From NCBI GenBank assembly GCA_027592745.1, contig JAQCLG010000001.1, positions 1 to 55,178 on the forward strand: DNA of 55,178 nt, in the 5' to 3' direction. Positions 390 through 46,441 of this stretch are shown one piece after another. The stretch's first letter is position 1. Every line of letters starts with the position of its first letter. A program made the position numbers and the translations under genes. Under the pieces are notes generated by a model. The model saw only the letters and a list, made by a program, of their open reading frames with translations. It made no database searches and was not told the DNA's origin. Source of the stretch: Pseudomonadota bacterium. Its GTDB lineage: Bacteria > Pseudomonadota > Alphaproteobacteria > SP197.

Positions 390-464
390 TGGCGACCCCT
401 ACGGGAATCGAACCCGTGTCTCAACCGTGAAAGGGTCGTGTCCTGACCGCTAGACGAAGGGGTC
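390..464 (-). tRNA. tRNA-Glu (anticodon UUC)
   Basis: Minus-strand 75 nt: GACCCCTTCGTCTAGCGGTCAGGACACGACCCTTTCACGGTTGAGACACGGGTTCGATTCCCGTAGGGGTCGCCA. Acceptor GACCCCT/AGGGGTC, anticodon loop CTTTCAC, T-loop GGTTCGATTCC, encoded CCA. Confidence 0.93.
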
Positions 465-503: not shown

Positions 504-1328
504 TCAAGTTCGCAACGCAGGTTTCCCGTCGCGTGGCTGCGCGGCCAGCAGCGCCCGCGCCTTGCGCAGGCGCGGCGCCAGGGCGCCGTCGACGATGCCG
601 GGGGCAAGATGCTGCACGAGGCGCAGGACATGCTCGGCGGGGCCGGGATAACAGCGGTCGCGGTCGCGCGCGACGGCGTTCCAGATGCGCGCGGCGACGG
701 CCTCCGGGGTATCGACCTTCATGGCAAAGGGCGCCTCGAGTTCGCCGTGGGCGGCAAAGGCCGGGGTGCGCGCGGCACGGGGTGCGGCATGGGTGATGCC
801 GATGCCATCCACCGCCAGTTCGCGCCGTAGCGAATCGGAGAGGCCGCGCAGGCCGAACTTGCTCGCCGAATAGCCGGCAAAGAAGGGAAAGGCGATGTCG
901 CCGAACATCGAGCCGATGTTGACCACGCGCGACGGCGCGGCATCGCGCAACAGGGGCAGCAGGTCACGGGTCAGCGCCAGCGGTGCGGCAAGGTTGGTCG
1001 CCAGCATCGCGGCGATCGCGGCATCGTCGTGTTCGGCAAGGCCGCCGATGGTCTGCACCCCGGCGTTGTTGACCAGGATCTCGACCCCGCCCAGGCCCCG
1101 CCCGGCTAGGTCGACAATGGCTGCACGACCCTCGGGCCGGGTGACGTCGGCGACGCAGATGCTCGCGCGTTGCGGCCGGAGCAGCGAATCGCGCGCGGCG
1201 TTGAGCGCATCGAGGCCACGCCCGACGAGGAGCAGCCGCGCACCGCGCTCGGAGGCCTCGCGGGCAAGCGACAGACCCAGCCCCGACCCCGCACCGGTCA
1301 GCACGATACGGGCGGTCTCAAGCTGCAT
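504..1328 (-). CDS. short-chain dehydrogenase/reductase (SDR)
   Basis: ATG at 1328 (MQLETARIVLTGAGSGLG). TGxxxGxG, NNAG and YSASK motifs present. The longer ORF to 1643 is shadow sequence. Start overlaps the upstream stop (1318-1320). Confidence 0.9.
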   Translation of the reverse strand: MQLETARIVLTGAGSGLGLSLAREASERGARLLLVGRGLDALNAARDSLLRPQRASICVADVTRPEGRAAIVDLAGRGLGGVEILVNNAGVQTIGGLAEHDDAAIAAMLATNLAAPLALTRDLLPLLRDAAPSRVVNIGSMFGDIAFPFFAGYSASKFGLRGLSDSLRRELAVDGIGITHAAPRAARTPAFAAHGELEAPFAMKVDTPEAVAARIWNAVARDRDRCYPGPAEHVLRLVQHLAPGIVDGALAPRLRKARALLAAQPRDGKPALRT

Positions 1329-1998
1329 CGGGTTCGTCCCGATGGCGCGCGGCGACCTCGCGGAAGAGATCGCCGTACAGGCGATAGACGACCCCGGCCG
1401 TGTCGACGATGGCGCGGCGGGCGGCTGCGTCGTCGATGCCGTCGACCAGGGTCTCGAAGAAGGCGACATGCTCGACATCGAGGCCGCCGTGGCTGGCGAG
1501 ATAGCGGAATCCTCCGCCCCCTTCCCCGGTTCCGACACGGGCCGCGATCGCCCGGGCCGCCTGGCCGGCCAGCGCCACCGACATGCCTTCGAGAACATGG
1601 ACCATGCCGAGCATGGCGTGGGGGTCGACGTGTTCGATCGCATAGTAGGCGTAGGCGACCATCAGCCGGCAGGGCAGGCGCGCCTGGCCATCACGGACCG
1701 CAGCGGCATCGCCGCCCAGGTCGGCGATGTCCTGCAGGATCCAGGCCTCGTGCCCGCGCTCCTCGGCGATGTAGTCGAACAGCGCCTCCCGGTAGCCCGC
1801 CTGGCCGTCGTCGCAGCGCGAGGCGGCCAGCGCCAGGAGGGGACAGGTATGGCGCACGTGATGGTAGGCCTGCGAGAGGTAGTCGACATAGGCCGCGCGG
1901 GAGACGCCGCGGTCGCAGGCCTGGGCAATCACCGGGATCGCGAGGAAATCGGCGCGCTCGGCCGCCGTGGCATCGAGCAGGTGGCGATAGAAGCTCAC
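1318..1998 (-). CDS. heme-oxygenase-like diiron / iron-containing redox enzyme family protein
   Basis: GTG at 1998 with GGAGA 7 nt upstream (VSFYRHLLDATAAERADF). Carboxylate/His motifs EERGHE, HVLEG and LDVEH. GTGA overlap with the upstream stop (1995-1997). Confidence 0.75.
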   Translation of the reverse strand: MSFYRHLLDATAAERADFLAIPVIAQACDRGVSRAAYVDYLSQAYHHVRHTCPLLALAASRCDDGQAGYREALFDYIAEERGHEAWILQDIADLGGDAAAVRDGQARLPCRLMVAYAYYAIEHVDPHAMLGMVHVLEGMSVALAGQAARAIAARVGTGEGGGGFRYLASHGGLDVEHVAFFETLVDGIDDAAARRAIVDTAGVVYRLYGDLFREVAARHRDEPDAA

Positions 1999-3443
1999 GA
2001 GGGCATCTCCACGGAATGGCTGCGCCTGCCGGCGGCGGGGGAGGACGGCGCAAGGGCTGCGGCCACGGTGCGACGATCGACACTGCCGTCGGGGCGCAAC
2101 CAGCCCGAACGCATGAAACAGCCGGGCGGCACGACGGCGATGTCGCGCGGACAGGCATAGTCGGGAAGTTCCGCCCAGCATGCCGCGGCCAGGCGCTCGG
2201 CAGGCTCGCGTTCGGGAACGGCGGCCTCGATGACGGCCCGGGGGTAGTCGCCGCCATCGAGCACGGCGCAATGGGCGATCCGGGGGTCGGCGAGCAGCAG
2301 GCCCTCAGGCCAGCCCGGCGAGACGTTGCGGCCCAGCGCGGTCACGATGACGTCGTCGCGGCGCCCCGTGACGACGAGGCAACCCGTCTCGTCGAGATGA
2401 CCCAGGTCGCCGCTGTGCCAGCGCGCCGGCGCCGGCGCCGCACCCAGGTAGCCCGCCATCAGGGAGGAATCGTCGATCACGATCTCGCCGTCCTCGATCG
2501 CCACGGAGACACCGGGCAGCGGACGCCCGACGGTGCCGGCACGACGCTCGCCGGGACGATTCAGCGCGACCACCGAACAACACTCGGTCAGGCCGTAACC
2601 TTCGTGGACCGCCAGGCCGACCTTCCAGGCCCGCTCGGCCAGGCCCTGTGCGACCGGTGCGCCGCCGACCGCGACCAGACGCAGCGAGGCAGGGGCACGC
2701 CGTCTGGTCGCTTCGAGCACGCCGGTCCAGGCCGCCAGCAGCGCGGGCACCAGGACGGTCACCGTGGGTGCTGCCGCCTCGGCGGCAGCCGGCAGATCGC
2801 CGCTCCACCCCGAGGGCCCGCGGGGAGCGAACCGCACCCCTCCCCCCGCGATCAGGACGACATGGATCGCACAGAGCATTTCCAGCAGCAGGCTGACGGG
2901 CAGGACCGAGAGATGGAGATCGTCCGGTCCGGCCGAACAGGCCACACCCAGGGTGAACGCCTTGGCATCGACGGCCGCCGCCTCGATCACCACGCCCCTG
3001 GGCCGCCCGGTCGTACCGGAGGTATAGGCGATGACACGCCCGCCGCGATCGGCCAGCCCGCCAACCTCGCAGGGGCGGTCCTCGATCACGGCAACGGGAC
3101 GTTCCCAACGCGTCGCCCGCAGTACCTGCGAGGGGCTCGCGGCAATCACCGTCACGCCGGCATCGGCGATGACGTGGGCGCATTGTTCCTCGCTGAAGAA
3201 CAGCGGTAAAGGCACCAGGGTGGCGCCCAGTGCGCGCACCGCCAGGACAGCGACCATCCAGTCGGGACCGTCCTCGGCCAGCACGCCGACCACGGACGCC
3301 TGGCTGCCCAGCATCGCGGCCAGCGCCGTGATACGGCCGGCAAGGCCCGACGCGTCGTGCTGCGTGCCGTCACAGGCTACCGCGACCACATCGCCGGGAT
3401 CGCGCGTGGCGCGCGAAAGCAGCCTGTCGAGGGCGCTAGGCAT
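1995..3443 (-). CDS. AMP-dependent (adenylate-forming) synthetase/ligase
   Basis: ATG at 3443 (MPSALDRLL). Motifs YTSGTTGRPRG, GYGLTE and GDLGHLDETGCLVVTGRRDD. 8-nt overlap with the upstream gene stop (3436-3438). Confidence 0.9.
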   Translation of the reverse strand: MPSALDRLLSRATRDPGDVVAVACDGTQHDASGLAGRITALAAMLGSQASVVGVLAEDGPDWMVAVLAVRALGATLVPLPLFFSEEQCAHVIADAGVTVIAASPSQVLRATRWERPVAVIEDRPCEVGGLADRGGRVIAYTSGTTGRPRGVVIEAAAVDAKAFTLGVACSAGPDDLHLSVLPVSLLLEMLCAIHVVLIAGGGVRFAPRGPSGWSGDLPAAAEAAAPTVTVLVPALLAAWTGVLEATRRRAPASLRLVAVGGAPVAQGLAERAWKVGLAVHEGYGLTECCSVVALNRPGERRAGTVGRPLPGVSVAIEDGEIVIDDSSLMAGYLGAAPAPARWHSGDLGHLDETGCLVVTGRRDDVIVTALGRNVSPGWPEGLLLADPRIAHCAVLDGGDYPRAVIEAAVPEREPAERLAAACWAELPDYACPRDIAVVPPGCFMRSGWLRPDGSVDRRTVAAALAPSSPAAGRRSHSVEMPS

Positions 3444-4035
3444 GGATGGCCCCCGGCAGCAGCGTGCGCAGCGCGGGACCGACCGGCAGACGGCCGGCCC
3501 GGTGGCCGGCCGGCACGTCGTCGAGCAGACACACCGCAGGGTCGGCATCGTAATAGCTGCCCCAGGCCGCCGGGTCGCCGACCCGTTCCCGCATCGCCGG
3601 AGCCAGCTCGACGACCGTGTAACCCGCCCGGCGCAGCGCACGGCGCAACGGGGCGGTGGCGGTGCAGACGCCGCAATCCATGCCCAGGCCGCGCCCGATC
3701 TCGCACACCCGCTCGATCAGCTGCATGGCATGGCCATGGCCGATGCCGGCCAGGGTCGTCACCTCGAGAATGGCAGCGGGCGCGACGCTGCGGCCGGTAC
3801 GGCGCAGGATCACATCCTCGATGTCTTCGTCGAGATAACAGGCGCTGAAACTTGCCTGCCAGCCCAGGCGCAATCCGGCGGCACAGAGGGGCCGGCCCTG
3901 CGCATCGGCCAGGGCAACCAGATGACGGGGAAAGGCTGCCAGGTCGGCCCCGTAGGCGTCCCGGTAGATGGAGCGGATCAGGTCCTCGACGACCCGCCGC
4001 ATGGGATCGCCGGGCTCGACAGTCAGGAAGTGCAT
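3436..4035 (-). CDS. thermostable-hemolysin-family protein (GNAT-like acyltransferase fold)
   Basis: ATG at 4035 with GAGG 6 nt upstream (MHFLTVEPGDPMRRVVEDLIRSIY). About 199 aa. Family call rests on remembered resemblance to T_hemolysin-type proteins, not on a search. Confidence 0.6.
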   Translation of the reverse strand: MHFLTVEPGDPMRRVVEDLIRSIYRDAYGADLAAFPRHLVALADAQGRPLCAAGLRLGWQASFSACYLDEDIEDVILRRTGRSVAPAAILEVTTLAGIGHGHAMQLIERVCEIGRGLGMDCGVCTATAPLRRALRRAGYTVVELAPAMRERVGDPAAWGSYYDADPAVCLLDDVPAGHRAGRLPVGPALRTLLPGAIHA

Positions 4036-4101
4036 GCCAGACCTCGTGGTTGAGGCCCCATCTAGCATTGCCGGACTTACCCCTGGCTTACAGCAGGGCG
4101 A

Positions 4102-5487
4102 TCATGCGGGCCGCAGGGTGATGCTGAACATCGCGCCGCGCCGGCCCTGCGCGTCGGCCGGGGCCTCGCCGACCACCAGGACCGCACCATGGGCGCGCAC
4201 GATCTGGTCGACGATGGCAAGACCCAGTCCGGCGCCGTTGGTGGCTCGGTCGGCACGCCAGAAGCGCTTCATGACCTTGGCGCGGTCCTCCGGGGCGATG
4301 CCGGGCCCATGGTCGATGACATGGAGCGTGGCGGGCCGCTCGATCACGATCTCGACCGCACTGCCGGCCGGCGCATGACCGATGGCATTCTCCACGAGGT
4401 TGCGCAGCGCGTGGCCCAGCGCCTCGGCGTGACCCGATACCGGCATCGGCCCCGCCTCGCTGCCGATCAGCTCGACCGTGACGCCGGCCTCGACCGCAAT
4501 CGGGGCAAGGAAGATCGCCACGCCGCGGGCGACCTCGACCAGGTCGACCCGGGCATCGACCGGCAGAACGAAGGTTTCCGCCTGCGCGGCATAGAGAAGC
4601 TGGGCAACGATCCGGTTGAGCACCGCGACGTCGCTCTTCAGGCGCTGCTTGAGGGCCGTATCGGCCACCTGGTCGATCTGGACGTTGAGGATGGCAAGGG
4701 GCGTGCGCAACTGGTGGGCAGCATCGGCGGAAAAGGCGCGCTGGACCTCGATGCCCGTCTGAAGCCGGGCAAAGGCGCGGTTGACGGCCTCGATCAGCGG
4801 CAGCACCTCGACCGGCATGTCGGCTTCGGGCAGGCGCGAGGCCGCATCGCCTGGAACGATCCGCGTGGCAAGCTCGGAGGCTACGCGTACCGGCCGCAGG
4901 GTGCCGCGCACGGTGGCGAAGGTGGTCGCCAGCAGGATGACGATGAAGAGCAGGACGACCCAGCCATGTTCGTCGGCGAATTCGACAAGCATGGTGTCGA
5001 GCAGCACGTCGCCGTGATCCTCGCTCTGGGCAGCCTGGATCACCAGGACCTGGCCATCGATCTGATAGGCCTTGGCGACGCCCGAAAGCTTGCCGGCGTT
5101 GCCCTGCCGTGGCGCCATGAAAAAGGCCTCGGTGCCCGGTGGCAGGATGGCCAGATCGTGGGCCAGCGCCCGATAGATGCCCGGCGAGGCCGCGACCAGG
5201 CTGCCCGCCCCATCGAGCACGGCATAGATGGCGCGCTCGCCGGCCGCGAACTGCTCGTAGGACAGGCGCAAGTGCTCCGGCAGGACCACCTCGAACCCTT
5301 AGCCGCCGGCCACGACGTAACGGGCGATGTCATCGGCCTGACGGGTCAGGCTGGCATCGCGCAGGCCGCCGATGATGGTATCGAGGCGCCAGCCCAGCAC
5401 GGCCAGAAGGGCGACGACCAAGATGACGGTCGCTGCGGTCAGGCGCAGCGCCAGCTTGAGAAACAGGGACGGGGCGCGGCGCGCCAT
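4102..5487 (-). pseudogene. sensor histidine kinase (TM, HAMP-like, HisKA H-box AHQLRTPL, HATPase_c) interrupted by an in-frame TAA
   Basis: ATG at 5487 (MARRAPSLFLKLALRL, TM1) forms an ATGA overlap with the response-regulator stop. The same frame reads ...YVVAGG TAA GFEVVLPEH..., with TAA at 5299-5301. The rest is intact down to the stop at 4102. Confidence 0.7.
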
Positions 5488-6176
5488 CAGGCCCTGGCGT
5501 CCGCCCGCTCCTCGGTCAGCAGGTAGCCGATCCCGCGCAGGGTGTGGATGGCGACCTCTGCGCCTGCCTCCACCAGCTTCTTGCGCAGACGATGCACGGC
5601 GACCTCGACCGAATTGGCGGACCCGCTGTCGTCGTAGCCGTAAAGCGACCCCTCGAGCAAGGTCTTGGGCACGACGCGGCCGGCCCGGCGCATGAAGTGT
5701 TCGAGCACGCTGAGTTCGCGGCGCGAAAGCGGCAGCCCGGCCCCGTCGATCATCGCCTCGCGCGAGATGGTGTCGAGTTGCAGGTTGCCGCTCACCAGTT
5801 CGGCGCCCAACGCGCCGCCGGCGCAGCGCAGCAGGGCATGCAGGCGGGCGATCAGCTCGGGCATGTCGAAGGGTTTCAGGACATAGTCGTCCGCACCCAG
5901 GTTGAGGCCGTTGACCCGGTCCTCCAGGCCGTCGCGCGCCGTCAGGATCAGGACCGGGACGTCGTGCCCGGCGGCACGCAGGCCCTGGAGCACCTGCAGG
6001 CCATCGCCGTCGGGAAGTCACAGGTCAAGGACGATGACGTCGTACTGCAGCGCCCCGGCCGCGGCCTCGGCATCGCCTGCCGTGGCGACGGCATCGACGG
6101 CGAAACCGGCGCCTCGCAACGCCTCGGCGACGATGGTCGCCAGCCTGTGATTGTCCTCGACCAGCAGAACACGCAT
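5487..6176 (-). pseudogene. OmpR/PhoB-type response regulator interrupted by an in-frame TGA
   Basis: ATG at 6176 (MRVLLVEDNHRL). The frame reads ...YDVIVLDL TGA LPDGDGLQVLQGLRAAGHDVPVLILTARD..., with TGA at 6018-6020. Winged-helix C-terminus is intact (VEVAVHRLRKKL). Confidence 0.7.
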
Positions 6177-6208: not shown

Positions 6209-6862
6209 TCAGCGCAGGACGTATTCGATGTTCGAACCGTCTTCGGCGCTGAAGCGCACCTTCACAAGAACACCCTGCGGGTCGTACCACAACTCGCGAA
6301 GGAGATCGCCCGAGAGTCTGTAGTGGCTTGCGGTCACCGGACCGGCCAGCCCCCTGACCTCCTCGTTGCCCAGCGTCTCGACGCTCACGGCCATCGCCGA
6401 ACCGTCGAGGGTGTTGAGCAGAACGGTCCGGGGTGCCGCGACAATGGCGTTGTTCCACAGGCTGGCCGGCAAGAGACCGGCGGGTCGTTCGGCGCCCACC
6501 CCGTTGTCGGAGACGCGGATGGCGTCGTCGTCTGCGGTCACGACCAGCTCGTGGTCCTCGCCATCGTCGTCGGTGCGGCTTTCAAGGGTTGCGAGGCGGC
6601 CGTTCTCCCAGTGTTCGTGGCCCTCATGTTCGAAGCGGTAGACGGTCACGAACATCATGGAGACCTCGATGTCGGTCTCGATGTCGACGTCGACGCCGCC
6701 GTTTGCGGACGCGGCGAAGCGCAGGACATGGGTGCCGATCTCCTCACCATCGCGCAGGACGGTGAAGTCCAGCGCGCCATCGGCGGGATAGGCGGCGGCA
6801 TGGGCGCCCGGGCCCGTGCCGAAGACACTTGCCGCAAGCAGGGCGGCAGGCAACCAGCGCAT
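6209..6862 (-). CDS. secreted hypothetical protein (possibly DUF6134-like)
   Basis: ATG at 6862 with GGAGG upstream. Signal peptide MRWLPAALLAASVFGTGPGAHAAA. Beta-rich, acidic mature part. Family name is from memory only. Confidence 0.6.
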   Translation of the reverse strand: MRWLPAALLAASVFGTGPGAHAAAYPADGALDFTVLRDGEEIGTHVLRFAASANGGVDVDIETDIEVSMMFVTVYRFEHEGHEHWENGRLATLESRTDDDGEDHELVVTADDDAIRVSDNGVGAERPAGLLPASLWNNAIVAAPRTVLLNTLDGSAMAVSVETLGNEEVRGLAGPVTASHYRLSGDLLRELWYDPQGVLVKVRFSAEDGSNIEYVLR

Positions 6863-6947
6863 GTTCACGGGGAGAACCTCCAGGAAATCCACAAGGTGGA
6901 TCGTCTTCTAGGCCGCGCGGCTTACCGCCGGCTTACCTGGATCACGC

Positions 6948-24384: not shown

Positions 24385-24462
24385 TGGGGTGGCTAGTCGG
24401 GTTCGAACCGACGACCTCCTGGACCACAACCAGGCGCTCTAACCAGCTGAGCTATAGCCACC
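24385..24462 (-). tRNA. tRNA-His (anticodon GUG)
   Basis: Minus strand: GGTGGCTATAGCTCAGCTGGTTAGAGCGCCTGGTTGTGGTCCAGGAGGTCGTCGGTTCGAACCCGACTAGCCACCCCA. Extra G-1 present, anticodon loop TTGTGGT, encoded CCA. Confidence 0.95.
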
Positions 24463-45937: not shown

Positions 45938-46207
45938 TCAGGACAGGCGGCGCAGGATCCTGGCCTTGACCAGATAGGACCCGGCCGAGACGCCGACCGC
46001 CGAGAAGCGGTTGCCGACGGCCTGAAAGCTGGGCTCGACGATGAGTCCGGCCAGGATCGCGCGGTCCATGGCTTCCTGGAAGGCGAGCATGGTCGCGGTC
46101 ACGTCCTGGGCGAGTTCGCGGTCGCTGTACTCGGACGGCCGGCGTGCCACCTCGAAGGCGGCGATGTTGGTGTCGTCGTGATCGATGAAGGACTGGGCCT
46201 GCGGCAT
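45938..46207 (-). CDS. hypothetical 89-aa protein
   Basis: ATG at 46207 with GGGAGA upstream. No family recognised. The longer ORF to 46471 runs into the repeat and is spurious. Confidence 0.45.
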   Translation of the reverse strand: MPQAQSFIDHDDTNIAAFEVARRPSEYSDRELAQDVTATMLAFQEAMDRAILAGLIVEPSFQAVGNRFSAVGVSAGSYLVKARILRRLS

Positions 46208-46441
46208 CGTCTGTCTCCCTTCGGTAACCCCGCTACCCGCACGCGACGGGCCGGAGGTTTTGCGTCCCGCCGTTGCCGACGGTTTGCCGTTGTTGAGGAG
46301 CCTGCCACCCGGCCCCGCCGGGCGATGCTCCAACCCAGTCAGCATCCACGCACGCGCCCGGCCAGGCCAGCACGAAACGCGGCCTGCGTGACGGAGGTCA
46401 CGCGCTCCACGGCCCAACGTGGCGGCTGGCAGCGTCGCCCG

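Follow-up and report, generated by a model that had tools for sequence, protein, structure and literature searches.

What does a protein of the thermostable-hemolysin family do at the head of an operon of metabolic enzymes? The question is raised by a contig from an alphaproteobacterium of the lineage SP197 (JAQCLG010000001.1, assembly GCA_027592745.1), in which four consecutive minus-strand genes between positions 504 and 4,035 encode a T_hemolysin-family protein (T_hem), an adenylating ligase of the ANL superfamily, an enzyme of the heme-oxygenase-like diiron oxidase/oxygenase type (HDO) and a classical short-chain dehydrogenase/reductase (SDR). The whole stretch analysed, a contig of 55,178 nt with 70% GC, is referred to below as the window. 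Our analysis showed that the four-gene block is a conserved cassette and not a one-off. The best inference as to its function, to which we give a probability of about one half, is that the four genes serve the regulated biosynthesis of a small molecule, which would be an oxidised, membrane-active acyl or N-acyl metabolite. The cassette had been annotated before, piece by piece, and its founding member has probably been misread as a toxin.

A conserved and translationally coupled block

The four genes, all intact and full length in the window, encode soluble proteins and are the following.

3436-4035, minus strand: T_hem, T_hemolysin-family protein, 199 aa (PF12261, E 6.6e-40)
1995-3443, minus strand: ANL-superfamily adenylating ligase, 482 aa (AMP-binding, E 4.5e-49)
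1318-1998, minus strand: HDO, 226 aa, GTG start (PF14518, E 3.2e-21)
504-1328, minus strand: classical SDR, 274 aa (adh_short, E 8.7e-40)

They are joined by start/stop overlaps of 8, 4 and 11 nt, at the positions where an earlier note on this DNA, written from the sequence alone, had placed them. The T_hem and ligase frames share ATGCCTAG at 3443-3436, T_hem ending in CAT GCC TAG with the ligase ATG embedded; the ligase (TCG TGA) and HDO (GTG start) share the GTGA at 1998-1995; and HDO (GCA GCT TGA) and the SDR (ATG CAG CTT GAG) share ATGCAGCTTGA at 1328-1318. The T_hem start at 4035 is supported by homologues that open with MHFLTVEPGD and by a promoter-like element at 4060-4091. When the four proteins were put to the profile hidden Markov model (HMM) searches that the same note had proposed, all of its Pfam assignments passed (T_hemolysin, AMP-binding, Haem_oxygenas_2 and adh_short).

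To place the block in other genomes, one genome per species was scanned with the HDO alignment, which confirmed at least 589 relatives; 80 loci (L007-L086) were fetched and their six-frame open reading frames (ORFs) searched with HMMs and with phmmer queries from the window proteins. The T_hem alignment has no conserved stretch; the census was seeded by HDO, so its counts are conditioned on this HDO subfamily. Ligase, HDO and SDR, in this order or a rearranged equivalent, were found in 80/80 loci. The upstream DNA was long enough to judge T_hem in 76 of them, and in 74 of these, drawn from the Alpha-, Beta- and Gammaproteobacteria, T_hem-ligase-HDO-SDR was colinear. In the two non-colinear loci (L011 and L080) a two-component system is inserted inside the block. 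Most of the taxa are Rhodospirillales and Hyphomicrobiales (Xanthobacter, Nitrospirillum, Tistlia, Magnetospirillum, Insolitispirillum, Tepidicaulis), and Idiomarina, Aromatoleum and Ca. Tenderia are also represented. The same four genes were seen in the neighbourhoods of three T_hem homologues, from an uncultured relative, Limibacillus halophilus and Xanthobacter sp. 91, and are annotated together on the conjugative Vibrio parahaemolyticus plasmid pLH214-1 and on a Citrobacter freundii plasmid; the block is also present on Pseudoalteromonas megaplasmids. A profile search of 1.84 billion representatives gave 2,070 T_hem clusters, all single-domain proteins of ~190-260 aa, and P0390, among the more distant members, sits in the same four-gene block.

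The co-occurrence on which the earlier reading depended is thus borne out by the 74 colinear loci. The word 'orphan', which that note had applied to the operon, stands in the sense that no product is assigned and falls in the sense of isolation, the cassette being widespread and including Vibrio relatives of delta-VPH. Full-text literature searches, NCBIfam and PADLOC yielded no characterised pathway with the four-gene block, in agreement with the note, and the literature searches found no description of DUF6134, the accessory family discussed below, or of 3dde/Sden_3740, the closest solved relative of HDO. The HDO DtpC of Acinetobacter baumannii was rejected as a literature match, since the dtpC-katE operon is unrelated. 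Of the three outcomes named beforehand as able to overturn the earlier reading (HMMs that contradict the assignments, a characterised pathway with this block, or genes that do not co-occur), none was observed.

The overlaps are conserved in the orthologous loci and exceed chance, and the coupling is under selection. At the T_hem/ligase junction the 8-nt overlap recurs in 40/71 loci, with an overlap of any length in 62/71; at the HDO/SDR junction the corresponding figures are 49/74 for exactly 11 nt and 60/74 for any overlap; and 21/76 ligase/HDO junctions have the 4-nt form, in addition to eight fusions. The conservation of the C-terminal "HA" of T_hem and "AA" of HDO is explained by the start codons embedded there. 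In the fused loci (L032, L046, L049, L052, L076, L081, L082 and L084, among them those of the isolates Insolitispirillum peregrinum and Azospirillum sp. B4) ligase and HDO form one stop-free frame, and in Pseudoalteromonas shioyasakiensis (L089, 5522-7681) the annotation gives the fusion as one protein of 719 aa, containing AMP-binding, AMP-binding_C_3 and Haem_oxygenas_2 domains. Such Rosetta-stone links argue that both enzymes act on the same intermediate. Two metagenome-assembled genomes (MAGs) carry two separate copies of the cassette each (L022/L035 in MFD05442.bin.2.198; L040/L047 in MFD05512.bin.1.8).

The four enzymes

The T_hem protein matches PF12261 with 137.2 bits (cut-off 27), its residues 7-171 covering positions 2-168 of the 174 in the model. 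Its AlphaFold2 (AF2) model, made with 21 homologues, is globular and has a beta-alpha-beta GNAT topology (pLDDT 86.9), so that the resemblance to the thermostable-hemolysin family and the GNAT-like fold, both suggested earlier, are supported at the level of profile and model. The best Foldseek matches in the PDB are the acyl-homoserine lactone (AHL) synthases TofI (E 2.9e-7), MesI, LasI and BjaI, followed by the N-acyl amino acid synthase FeeM (E 1e-5 to 2e-4 for the last four) and ordinary GNATs, with TM-scores of 0.51-0.56 and 10-18% identity. Like GNAT-derived LuxI-type synthases (BjaI, RpaI and MesI being CoA-dependent) and FeeM, which move an activated acyl chain onto an amine, T_hem thus looks like a putative acyltransferase; it would belong to the structural neighbourhood of those families without being a member of either, as it has no detectable sequence similarity to them. 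CoA-dependent AHL synthases rely on a CoA ligase for their substrate. Another difference lies in the regulatory partner, which is LuxR in LuxI systems and a two-component system here. Glu91 on strand beta4 is invariant and is kept even in the 28%-identical Vibrio protein. A catalytic Cys in the CAAGLR motif was considered and rejected, this residue being Lys in the Vibrio homologue.

The Vibrio protein in question is a plasmid-borne homologue (E 8e-19 to the window T_hem) in PF12261, the family of delta-VPH, and it stands in the same block of T_hem, AMP-binding, iron-containing redox enzyme and SDR genes. The delta-VPH of V. parahaemolyticus and V. cholerae has been treated as a stand-alone toxin, whereas the window T_hem is the first enzyme of a four-gene cassette. 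On the V. parahaemolyticus chromosome, VP1729 (thermostable hemolysin) and VP1731 (iron-containing redox enzyme) were reported as linked neighbours (PMC10469919), and this linkage, together with the plasmid blocks, indicates that delta-VPH-type genes of Vibrio sit in this cassette. The Vibrio cassettes differ from that of the window in having a tetratricopeptide repeat (TPR) protein instead of DUF6134 as accessory, and a TTAAG instead of a GTAAG form of the regulatory box described below.

The ligase matches AMP-binding (PF00501) with 167.7 bits and carries the ANL core motifs A3 (YTSGTTGRPRG), A5 (GYGLTE), A7 (SGDLG) and A8 (GRRDDVI). Its nearest solved relatives are MatB, MenE, feruloyl-CoA synthetase and FadD13, and NCBIfam returned generic names only (long-chain-fatty-acid-CoA ligase and MenE-like). 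The SDR scores 136.7 bits against adh_short and has both classical motifs, TGAGSGLG and YSASK; it lies just under the cut-off of NF006565 (218.6 bits against 238), and its nearest structures are hydroxyacyl and hydroxybutyrate dehydrogenases and ketoreductases. The ligase and SDR motifs read in the earlier note are therefore all found in the sequence.

The HDO match to PF14518 (Haem_oxygenas_2) is 76 bits, with a cut-off of 28.9, and the AF2 model (pLDDT 90.9) has a seven-helix heme-oxygenase-like fold. It superposes on 3dde, an uncharacterised Shewanella protein (Sden_3740), with a TM-score of 0.86, on CADD with 0.81 and on UndA with 0.78, and BesC was also matched; the family profile finds 3dde (3.9e-16), CADD (8.9e-7) and MboA (5e-3) in the PDB. 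Six residues, E80, H83, E137, H170, D174 and H177, are invariant in 27 sequences, making a set of three His and three carboxylates, and they align with what we take to be the ligand positions of CADD (EEN..H, YSYE and HEEADVRH). These alignments and the model support the prediction of a six-ligand diiron site, and with it the heme-oxygenase-like diiron assignment made earlier. The fold is shared with CADD (a p-aminobenzoate synthase), UndA, BesC, SznF, MboA and 3dde, and the E/ExxH/E/HxxxDxxH-type ligands of HDO align with those of CADD; no characterised member reaches 20% identity to HDO, the function of 3dde, its closest structure, is not assigned, and this subfamily is dedicated to a ligase partner to which it is sometimes fused. 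We know of no report of a dedicated ligase partner for a characterised HDO. NCBIfam has no model for T_hem, HDO or DUF6134, and PADLOC assigned no defence family to the five proteins tested.

The HDO is the part of the system that changes. T_hem and ligase form a constant pair, and the oxygenase differs between lineages. On plasmid pAK1 of Paracoccus sp. AK26 (L094, 5947-10185) the order is T_hem-ligase-SDR-TauD/TfdA-DUF6134, TauD replacing HDO, with divergent response regulator (RR) and histidine kinase (HK) genes, so that this cluster keeps the SDR, DUF6134, the two-component system and a one-mismatch box. Pantoea agglomerans and Serratia sp. 39006 have T_hem-ligase-TauD with an MFS/Bcr exporter, and a Streptomyces plasmid has O-methyltransferase-T_hem-ligase-TauD-methyltransferase-NTF2-amidohydrolase (the Pantoea and Streptomyces variants are L093 and L096). 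In these TauD/TfdA clusters T_hem and ligase again accompany an O2-dependent non-heme-iron oxygenase, though one from a different superfamily than HDO; the clusters have MFS exporters or methyltransferases as accessories and are likewise uncharacterised; the Serratia sp. 39006 or1352-5 operon has been reported as the locus most strongly repressed by RsmA. The use of either an HDO or an Fe/2-oxoglutarate dioxygenase in the same system points to a common O2-dependent oxidation step, and the exporters and methyltransferases of the relatives point to biosynthesis rather than catabolism. The Paracoccus TauD gene is annotated as two pieces (95 aa and 206 aa), which may reflect a frameshift.

A shared box, its two-component system and the accessory proteins

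The earlier note had remarked that the operon lies downstream, on the same strand, of a two-component system and a secreted protein. This arrangement holds, and the link is strengthened by a direct-repeat box common to both units. The features concerned, listed from the T_hem start outwards, are the following.

4060-4065, minus strand: CTAGAT, a hexamer of the -10 type that follows the box by 10 nt; the window, L001 and L007 all have it as GCTAGATG
4076-4091, minus strand: direct repeat GTAAGCCAGGGGTAAG, putative RR box, ending 40 nt upstream of the T_hem ATG
4102-5487, minus strand: sensor HK with two transmembrane segments, HAMP, HisKA and HATPase_c; in-frame TAA at 5299-5301
5487-6176, minus strand: OmpR-family RR, PmrA/QseB-like; in-frame TGA at 6018-6020
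6209-6868, minus strand: DUF6134 protein (PF19630, 172 bits) with a Sec-type signal peptide MRWLPAALLAASVFGTGPGAHA; GTG start at 6868, 8 nt after GGAGG
6906-6911, minus strand: CTAGAA, -10-like hexamer, 9 nt after the box at 6921-6936
6921-6936, minus strand: direct repeat GTAAGCCGGCGGTAAG, putative OmpR/PhoB-family RR box, upstream of DUF6134-RR-HK

In the window and in L001 and L007, all six of the HK-T_hem and recJ-DUF6134 intergenic regions carry GTAAG-N6-GTAAG, followed 9-10 nt on by CTAGAT or CTAGAA. The repeat occurs exactly twice in the 55-kb window, against 0.00 expected from 100 shuffles. In 26 of 75 loci the 160 nt upstream of T_hem contain the exact box, and the number rises to 33 when one mismatch is allowed; the box usually ends 40-65 nt before the start. 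Clade variants exist (GTCAG-N6-GTCAG in L040, L047, L063-068 and L075; TTAAG-N6-TTAAG in Idiomarina and Aromatoleum), and Pseudoalteromonas, Vibrio, Citrobacter, Limibacillus and Paracoccus have the same repeat or a one-mismatch form. A search of 2.2 Mb on both strands found 55 exact boxes, of which 42 were assigned automatically (28 before T_hem, 8 before DUF6134 and 6 before TPR units); by their coordinates, most of the remaining 13 also lie just upstream of units of the system. The two split operons have a box before each fragment. In L057 (5860-5897), four consecutive GTAAG half-sites with 11-nt spacing, instead of the usual two, stand upstream of T_hem.

Direct repeats one helical turn apart that abut a -10 element are the classic arrangement of OmpR/PhoB-family activators, and the geometry of box and hexamer would accordingly resemble a PhoB-type class II activated promoter. 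The published PmrA box is YTTAAK-N5-YTTAAK. As in PmrA/PmrB (BasRS) and QseB/QseC systems, the window-type box is a direct repeat with 11-nt periodicity, and the gammaproteobacterial form TTAAG-N6-TTAAG resembles the PmrA box, whereas the alphaproteobacterial half-site is GTAAG. The intact RR orthologue of L001 is matched best in NCBIfam by PmrA (213.7 bits, cut-off 330), then by QseB (199, cut-off 345) and TctD, and the kinases match heavy-metal sensor, QseC (125 against a cut-off of 475) and PmrB models. None of these RR and HK matches reaches its equivalog cut-off, which places the system in a related subfamily only. From these sequences we infer that a dedicated PmrA/QseB-like system may activate the cassette together with its own DUF6134-RR-HK unit, and also the TPR-methyltransferase unit in loci that have one.

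Both regulatory genes of the window contain a nonsense codon, which the earlier note had not remarked on. The regulator is 91% identical to its L001 orthologue and reads DL*LPDGDG, with the stop at a conserved Gly; the kinase is 74% identical to that of L001 and colinear with it over 461 codons. A frameshift in the kinase was rejected, as tblastn shows a single in-frame TAA, and so was alternative decoding of TGA, since TGA terminates the operon's own genes and it is TAA that interrupts the kinase; neither regulatory gene has a frameshift. The two codons represent either a recent inactivation of the regulatory pair in this population or consensus/assembly errors. With nonsense codons in both genes, the operon is probably not inducible in this MAG.

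The DUF6134 protein of the window is 77% identical to its L001 orthologue. Its family has the conserved motifs FxVLRxGxxIGxH, YRFxHxGxExW, TxDDG, PASLW, LNTLxG and RELW, and its His/Glu-rich stretch, FEHEGHEHW in the window, could bind a metal; the PDB sequence search found no solved homologue. Unbiased ORF clustering identified a second accessory, a TPR protein of ~220 aa with a signal peptide, directly after the SDR in 51 of 80 loci. It is the fifth gene in Vibrio and Citrobacter and matches TatT, a TRAP-T component, weakly and below threshold. In 44-45 of 80 loci it is followed by a SAM methyltransferase, and the TPR-methyltransferase pair is sometimes inverted beside the cassette with its own box. 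Accessories of this group were also noted in L087 (8456-9076) and L005 (10604-11937). DUF6134 was found in 24/80 loci and together with the TPR protein in 0/80 (Fisher p = 7e-16, uncorrected for phylogeny), and we read the two as alternative periplasmic partners. The window is of the DUF6134 and two-component type, with no TPR or methyltransferase homologue anywhere in it.

Further upstream of DUF6134-RR-HK are recJ and glpX, in the same gene order as in L001, a 61%-identical relative, and the GC content of the operon resembles that of its surroundings; together these observations place the locus in the core chromosome in this clade. The end of the operon is marked by a tRNA-Glu(TTC) gene (390-464, minus strand) that lies 40 nt beyond the SDR stop. 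A scan of this 70% GC region for consensus promoters and terminators gave nothing informative. Elsewhere in the window we noted a tRNA-His(GTG) gene at 24385-24461 (minus strand) and a c-di-GMP-I-GGC riboswitch aptamer at 46219-46297 (minus strand), which scores 61.5 bits against a gathering score of 59 and precedes a small ORF of ~88 aa (MPQAQSFIDHDD..., ~45938-46205).

What the cassette may make

At the family level the locus belongs to PF12261, to the ANL superfamily, to PF14518/HDO and to the SDRs, with no demonstrable membership of LuxI or N-acyl amino acid synthase (NAS) families and no PmrAB/QseBC equivalog. In the biosynthetic reading that we favour, the ligase would activate a carboxylic acid with ATP to an acyl-AMP and then probably to a CoA or acyl carrier protein (ACP) thioester. 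The HDO, which we place beside the ligase because the two are fused in several lineages, would dock to it and use O2 to oxidise the acyl unit or its precursor, or make the acid, most simply by hydroxylation or desaturation, a step at which the TauD/TfdA Fe/2-oxoglutarate dioxygenase could stand in. The SDR, translationally coupled to HDO, would interconvert the resulting hydroxyl and keto groups, and T_hem would pass the acyl group on to an acceptor with an amine (or hydroxyl) group to give an amphiphilic, heat-stable, membrane-active product. The PmrA/QseB-like RR would bind the GTAAG-N6-GTAAG boxes and switch on the operon as well as its own DUF6134-RR-HK unit, while the periplasmic DUF6134, or the TPR protein in other lineages, might bind or handle the product or the stimulus.

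With such a product, the 'thermostable hemolysin' phenotype recorded in the past for delta-VPH clones would be accounted for. The haemolytic activity of cloned delta-VPH was found in lysates and supernatants, and the protein has no signal peptide (PMC4046660); as a precedent, other 'hemolysin' clones have proved to carry N-acyl amino acid synthases that make a haemolytic lipid (PMC5643525, PMC4897644). These precedents, the enzyme fold, and activity in lysate and supernatant from a protein without a secretion signal are our reasons for attributing the haemolysis to a lipid product. As between a lipid acting in the envelope or periplasm and a diffusible signal, we slightly prefer the former, given the PmrA-like regulator, the GT39, GT2 and epimerase genes beside the Paracoccus two-component system and the lack of an exporter. 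A PmrA/QseB-like regulator suits a role in envelope remodelling no less than one in autoinduction. The known PmrA regulon modifies lipid A with phosphoethanolamine (pEtN) and 4-amino-4-deoxy-L-arabinose (Ara4N), not with this cassette.

Several points weigh against this reading. Substrate, acceptor and product, and so every chemical step, are ones that we infer, and the likeness of T_hem to LuxI and FeeM holds at the level of the fold only (TM ~0.5, 10-18% identity): 21 T_hem members have no Pfam match other than PF12261 even at E <= 10, and neither the protein nor its profile has a sequence match in the PDB. The ligase is unusual. The canonical A10 lysine (PxxxxGK) is missing at its C-terminus (~2085-2110), replaced by Ser in the clade of the window (PDGSVDRR) and by Arg in the majority of orthologues, that of Vibrio among them (NGRxxR), and in the window alone A3 reads GRPRG (~2990-3020) where it is otherwise GRPKG; these departures suggest that its chemistry may be atypical. 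The cassette comes without a carrier protein, a thioesterase or an exporter. The pairing of box and regulator is drawn from position and family, and the mutual-exclusion and co-occurrence statistics carry no phylogeny correction. Lastly, the older literature credits the haemolysis to the delta-VPH protein itself.

The best-placed of the alternatives, though an unlikely one in our view, is an autoinducer loop, the kind of locus to which the earlier note had likened this one, in which the LuxI-like enzyme, in the manner of CoA-dependent AHL synthases, would use acyl-CoA made by the ligase to produce a diffusible signal, sensed by the HK, perhaps through DUF6134 or the TPR protein, with positive feedback through the box. 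It draws on the CoA-dependent AHL synthases MesI, BjaI and RpaI among the top structural neighbours of T_hem, on the autoregulation implied by one box common to the two-component unit and the operon, on the resemblance of RR and HK to QseB and QseC as well, and on the presence of cassettes on conjugative plasmids. The TauD-type relatives with MFS exporters also fit it, as does the Serratia operon, which is under strong RsmA control in the manner of secondary metabolites. However, Pfam detects no LuxI signature in the T_hem sequence, the HDO-type cassettes have no exporter, and many loci lack an adjacent two-component system. PmrA-like regulators, moreover, usually respond to metals, pH and envelope stress, and the Paracoccus system is flanked by GT39, GT2 and epimerase genes (by their annotated products only), which may resemble Arn-type genes for envelope modification.

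We consider it improbable that the block is instead a catabolic or detoxification module, in which the ligase would make the CoA thioester of an exogenous acid, HDO and SDR would oxidise it, by analogy with CoA-dependent aerobic aromatic pathways, and the GNAT-like protein would transfer or remove the acyl group. The catabolic or metabolic nature of the CoA ligases related to ours (MatB, MenE, feruloyl-CoA synthetase and FadD13) and the resemblance of the SDR to 3-hydroxyacyl and 3-hydroxybutyrate dehydrogenases would suit such a module. No hydratase, thiolase, ring-cleavage, transporter or substrate-responsive regulator gene is conserved with the block, however; its accessories are the periplasmic DUF6134 or TPR proteins and a methyltransferase, and its relatives are found in small clusters with methyltransferases and exporters, which are typical of biosynthesis.

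A role of the operon in cofactor metabolism (pyrroloquinoline quinone (PQQ), thiamin or folate), or of HDO as a CADD-like p-aminobenzoate synthase, seems very improbable. Homologues of HDO carry the public names 'PQQ biosynthesis protein C' and 'TenA family transcriptional regulator', and CADD is its closest characterised sequence relative (profile E 8.9e-7, TM 0.81), but the Pfam match is to PF14518 and not to TENA_THI-4, the invariant set of three His and three carboxylates marks a diiron oxidase and not a thiaminase, a TauD enzyme can replace HDO, and no pqq, thi or fol genes are linked in the loci examined. That T_hem is itself a proteinaceous, thermostable pore-forming haemolysin with three unrelated neighbours, as the family name and the haemolysis reported for cloned delta-VPH (summarised in PMC4046660) might suggest, is scarcely credible for a protein with no signal peptide in its sequence and a confident GNAT-type enzyme fold, whose gene overlaps that of the ligase in 62/71 loci within an invariant four-gene block, and which is found for the most part in Alphaproteobacteria that live free in soil and water and in clusters of Streptomyces.

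Returning to the biosynthetic reading, a bolder version of it, which we hold only tentatively and consider doubtful as a whole, is that T_hem proteins are not toxins but LuxI/FeeM-like acyltransferases heading a widespread cassette under PmrA/QseB-type control, that a ligase-docked HDO (or TauD) performs new chemistry in it on an activated acyl unit, and that the product is an unrecognised class of membrane-active lipid or signal read by periplasmic DUF6134 or TPR proteins. It would account as well for the 35-year-old delta-VPH phenotype of pathogenic vibrios. If the biosynthetic model holds, a family of ~2,000 sequence clusters would shift from 'pore-forming toxin' to biosynthetic acyltransferase. 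The enzymology of HDOs would gain a large, defined subfamily whose ligase partner is obligate and which offers natural fusions, well suited to mechanistic work, and roles would be suggested for DUF6134 and the TPR family. The system, of four to seven genes, is small and directly testable by heterologous expression. The model would also give PmrA/QseB-like two-component systems a new regulon in the Alpha-, Beta- and Gammaproteobacteria, with Vibrio and the plasmid-borne copies of Enterobacterales among them, and this regulon may have a part in envelope stress, in resistance to antimicrobial peptides or in signalling.

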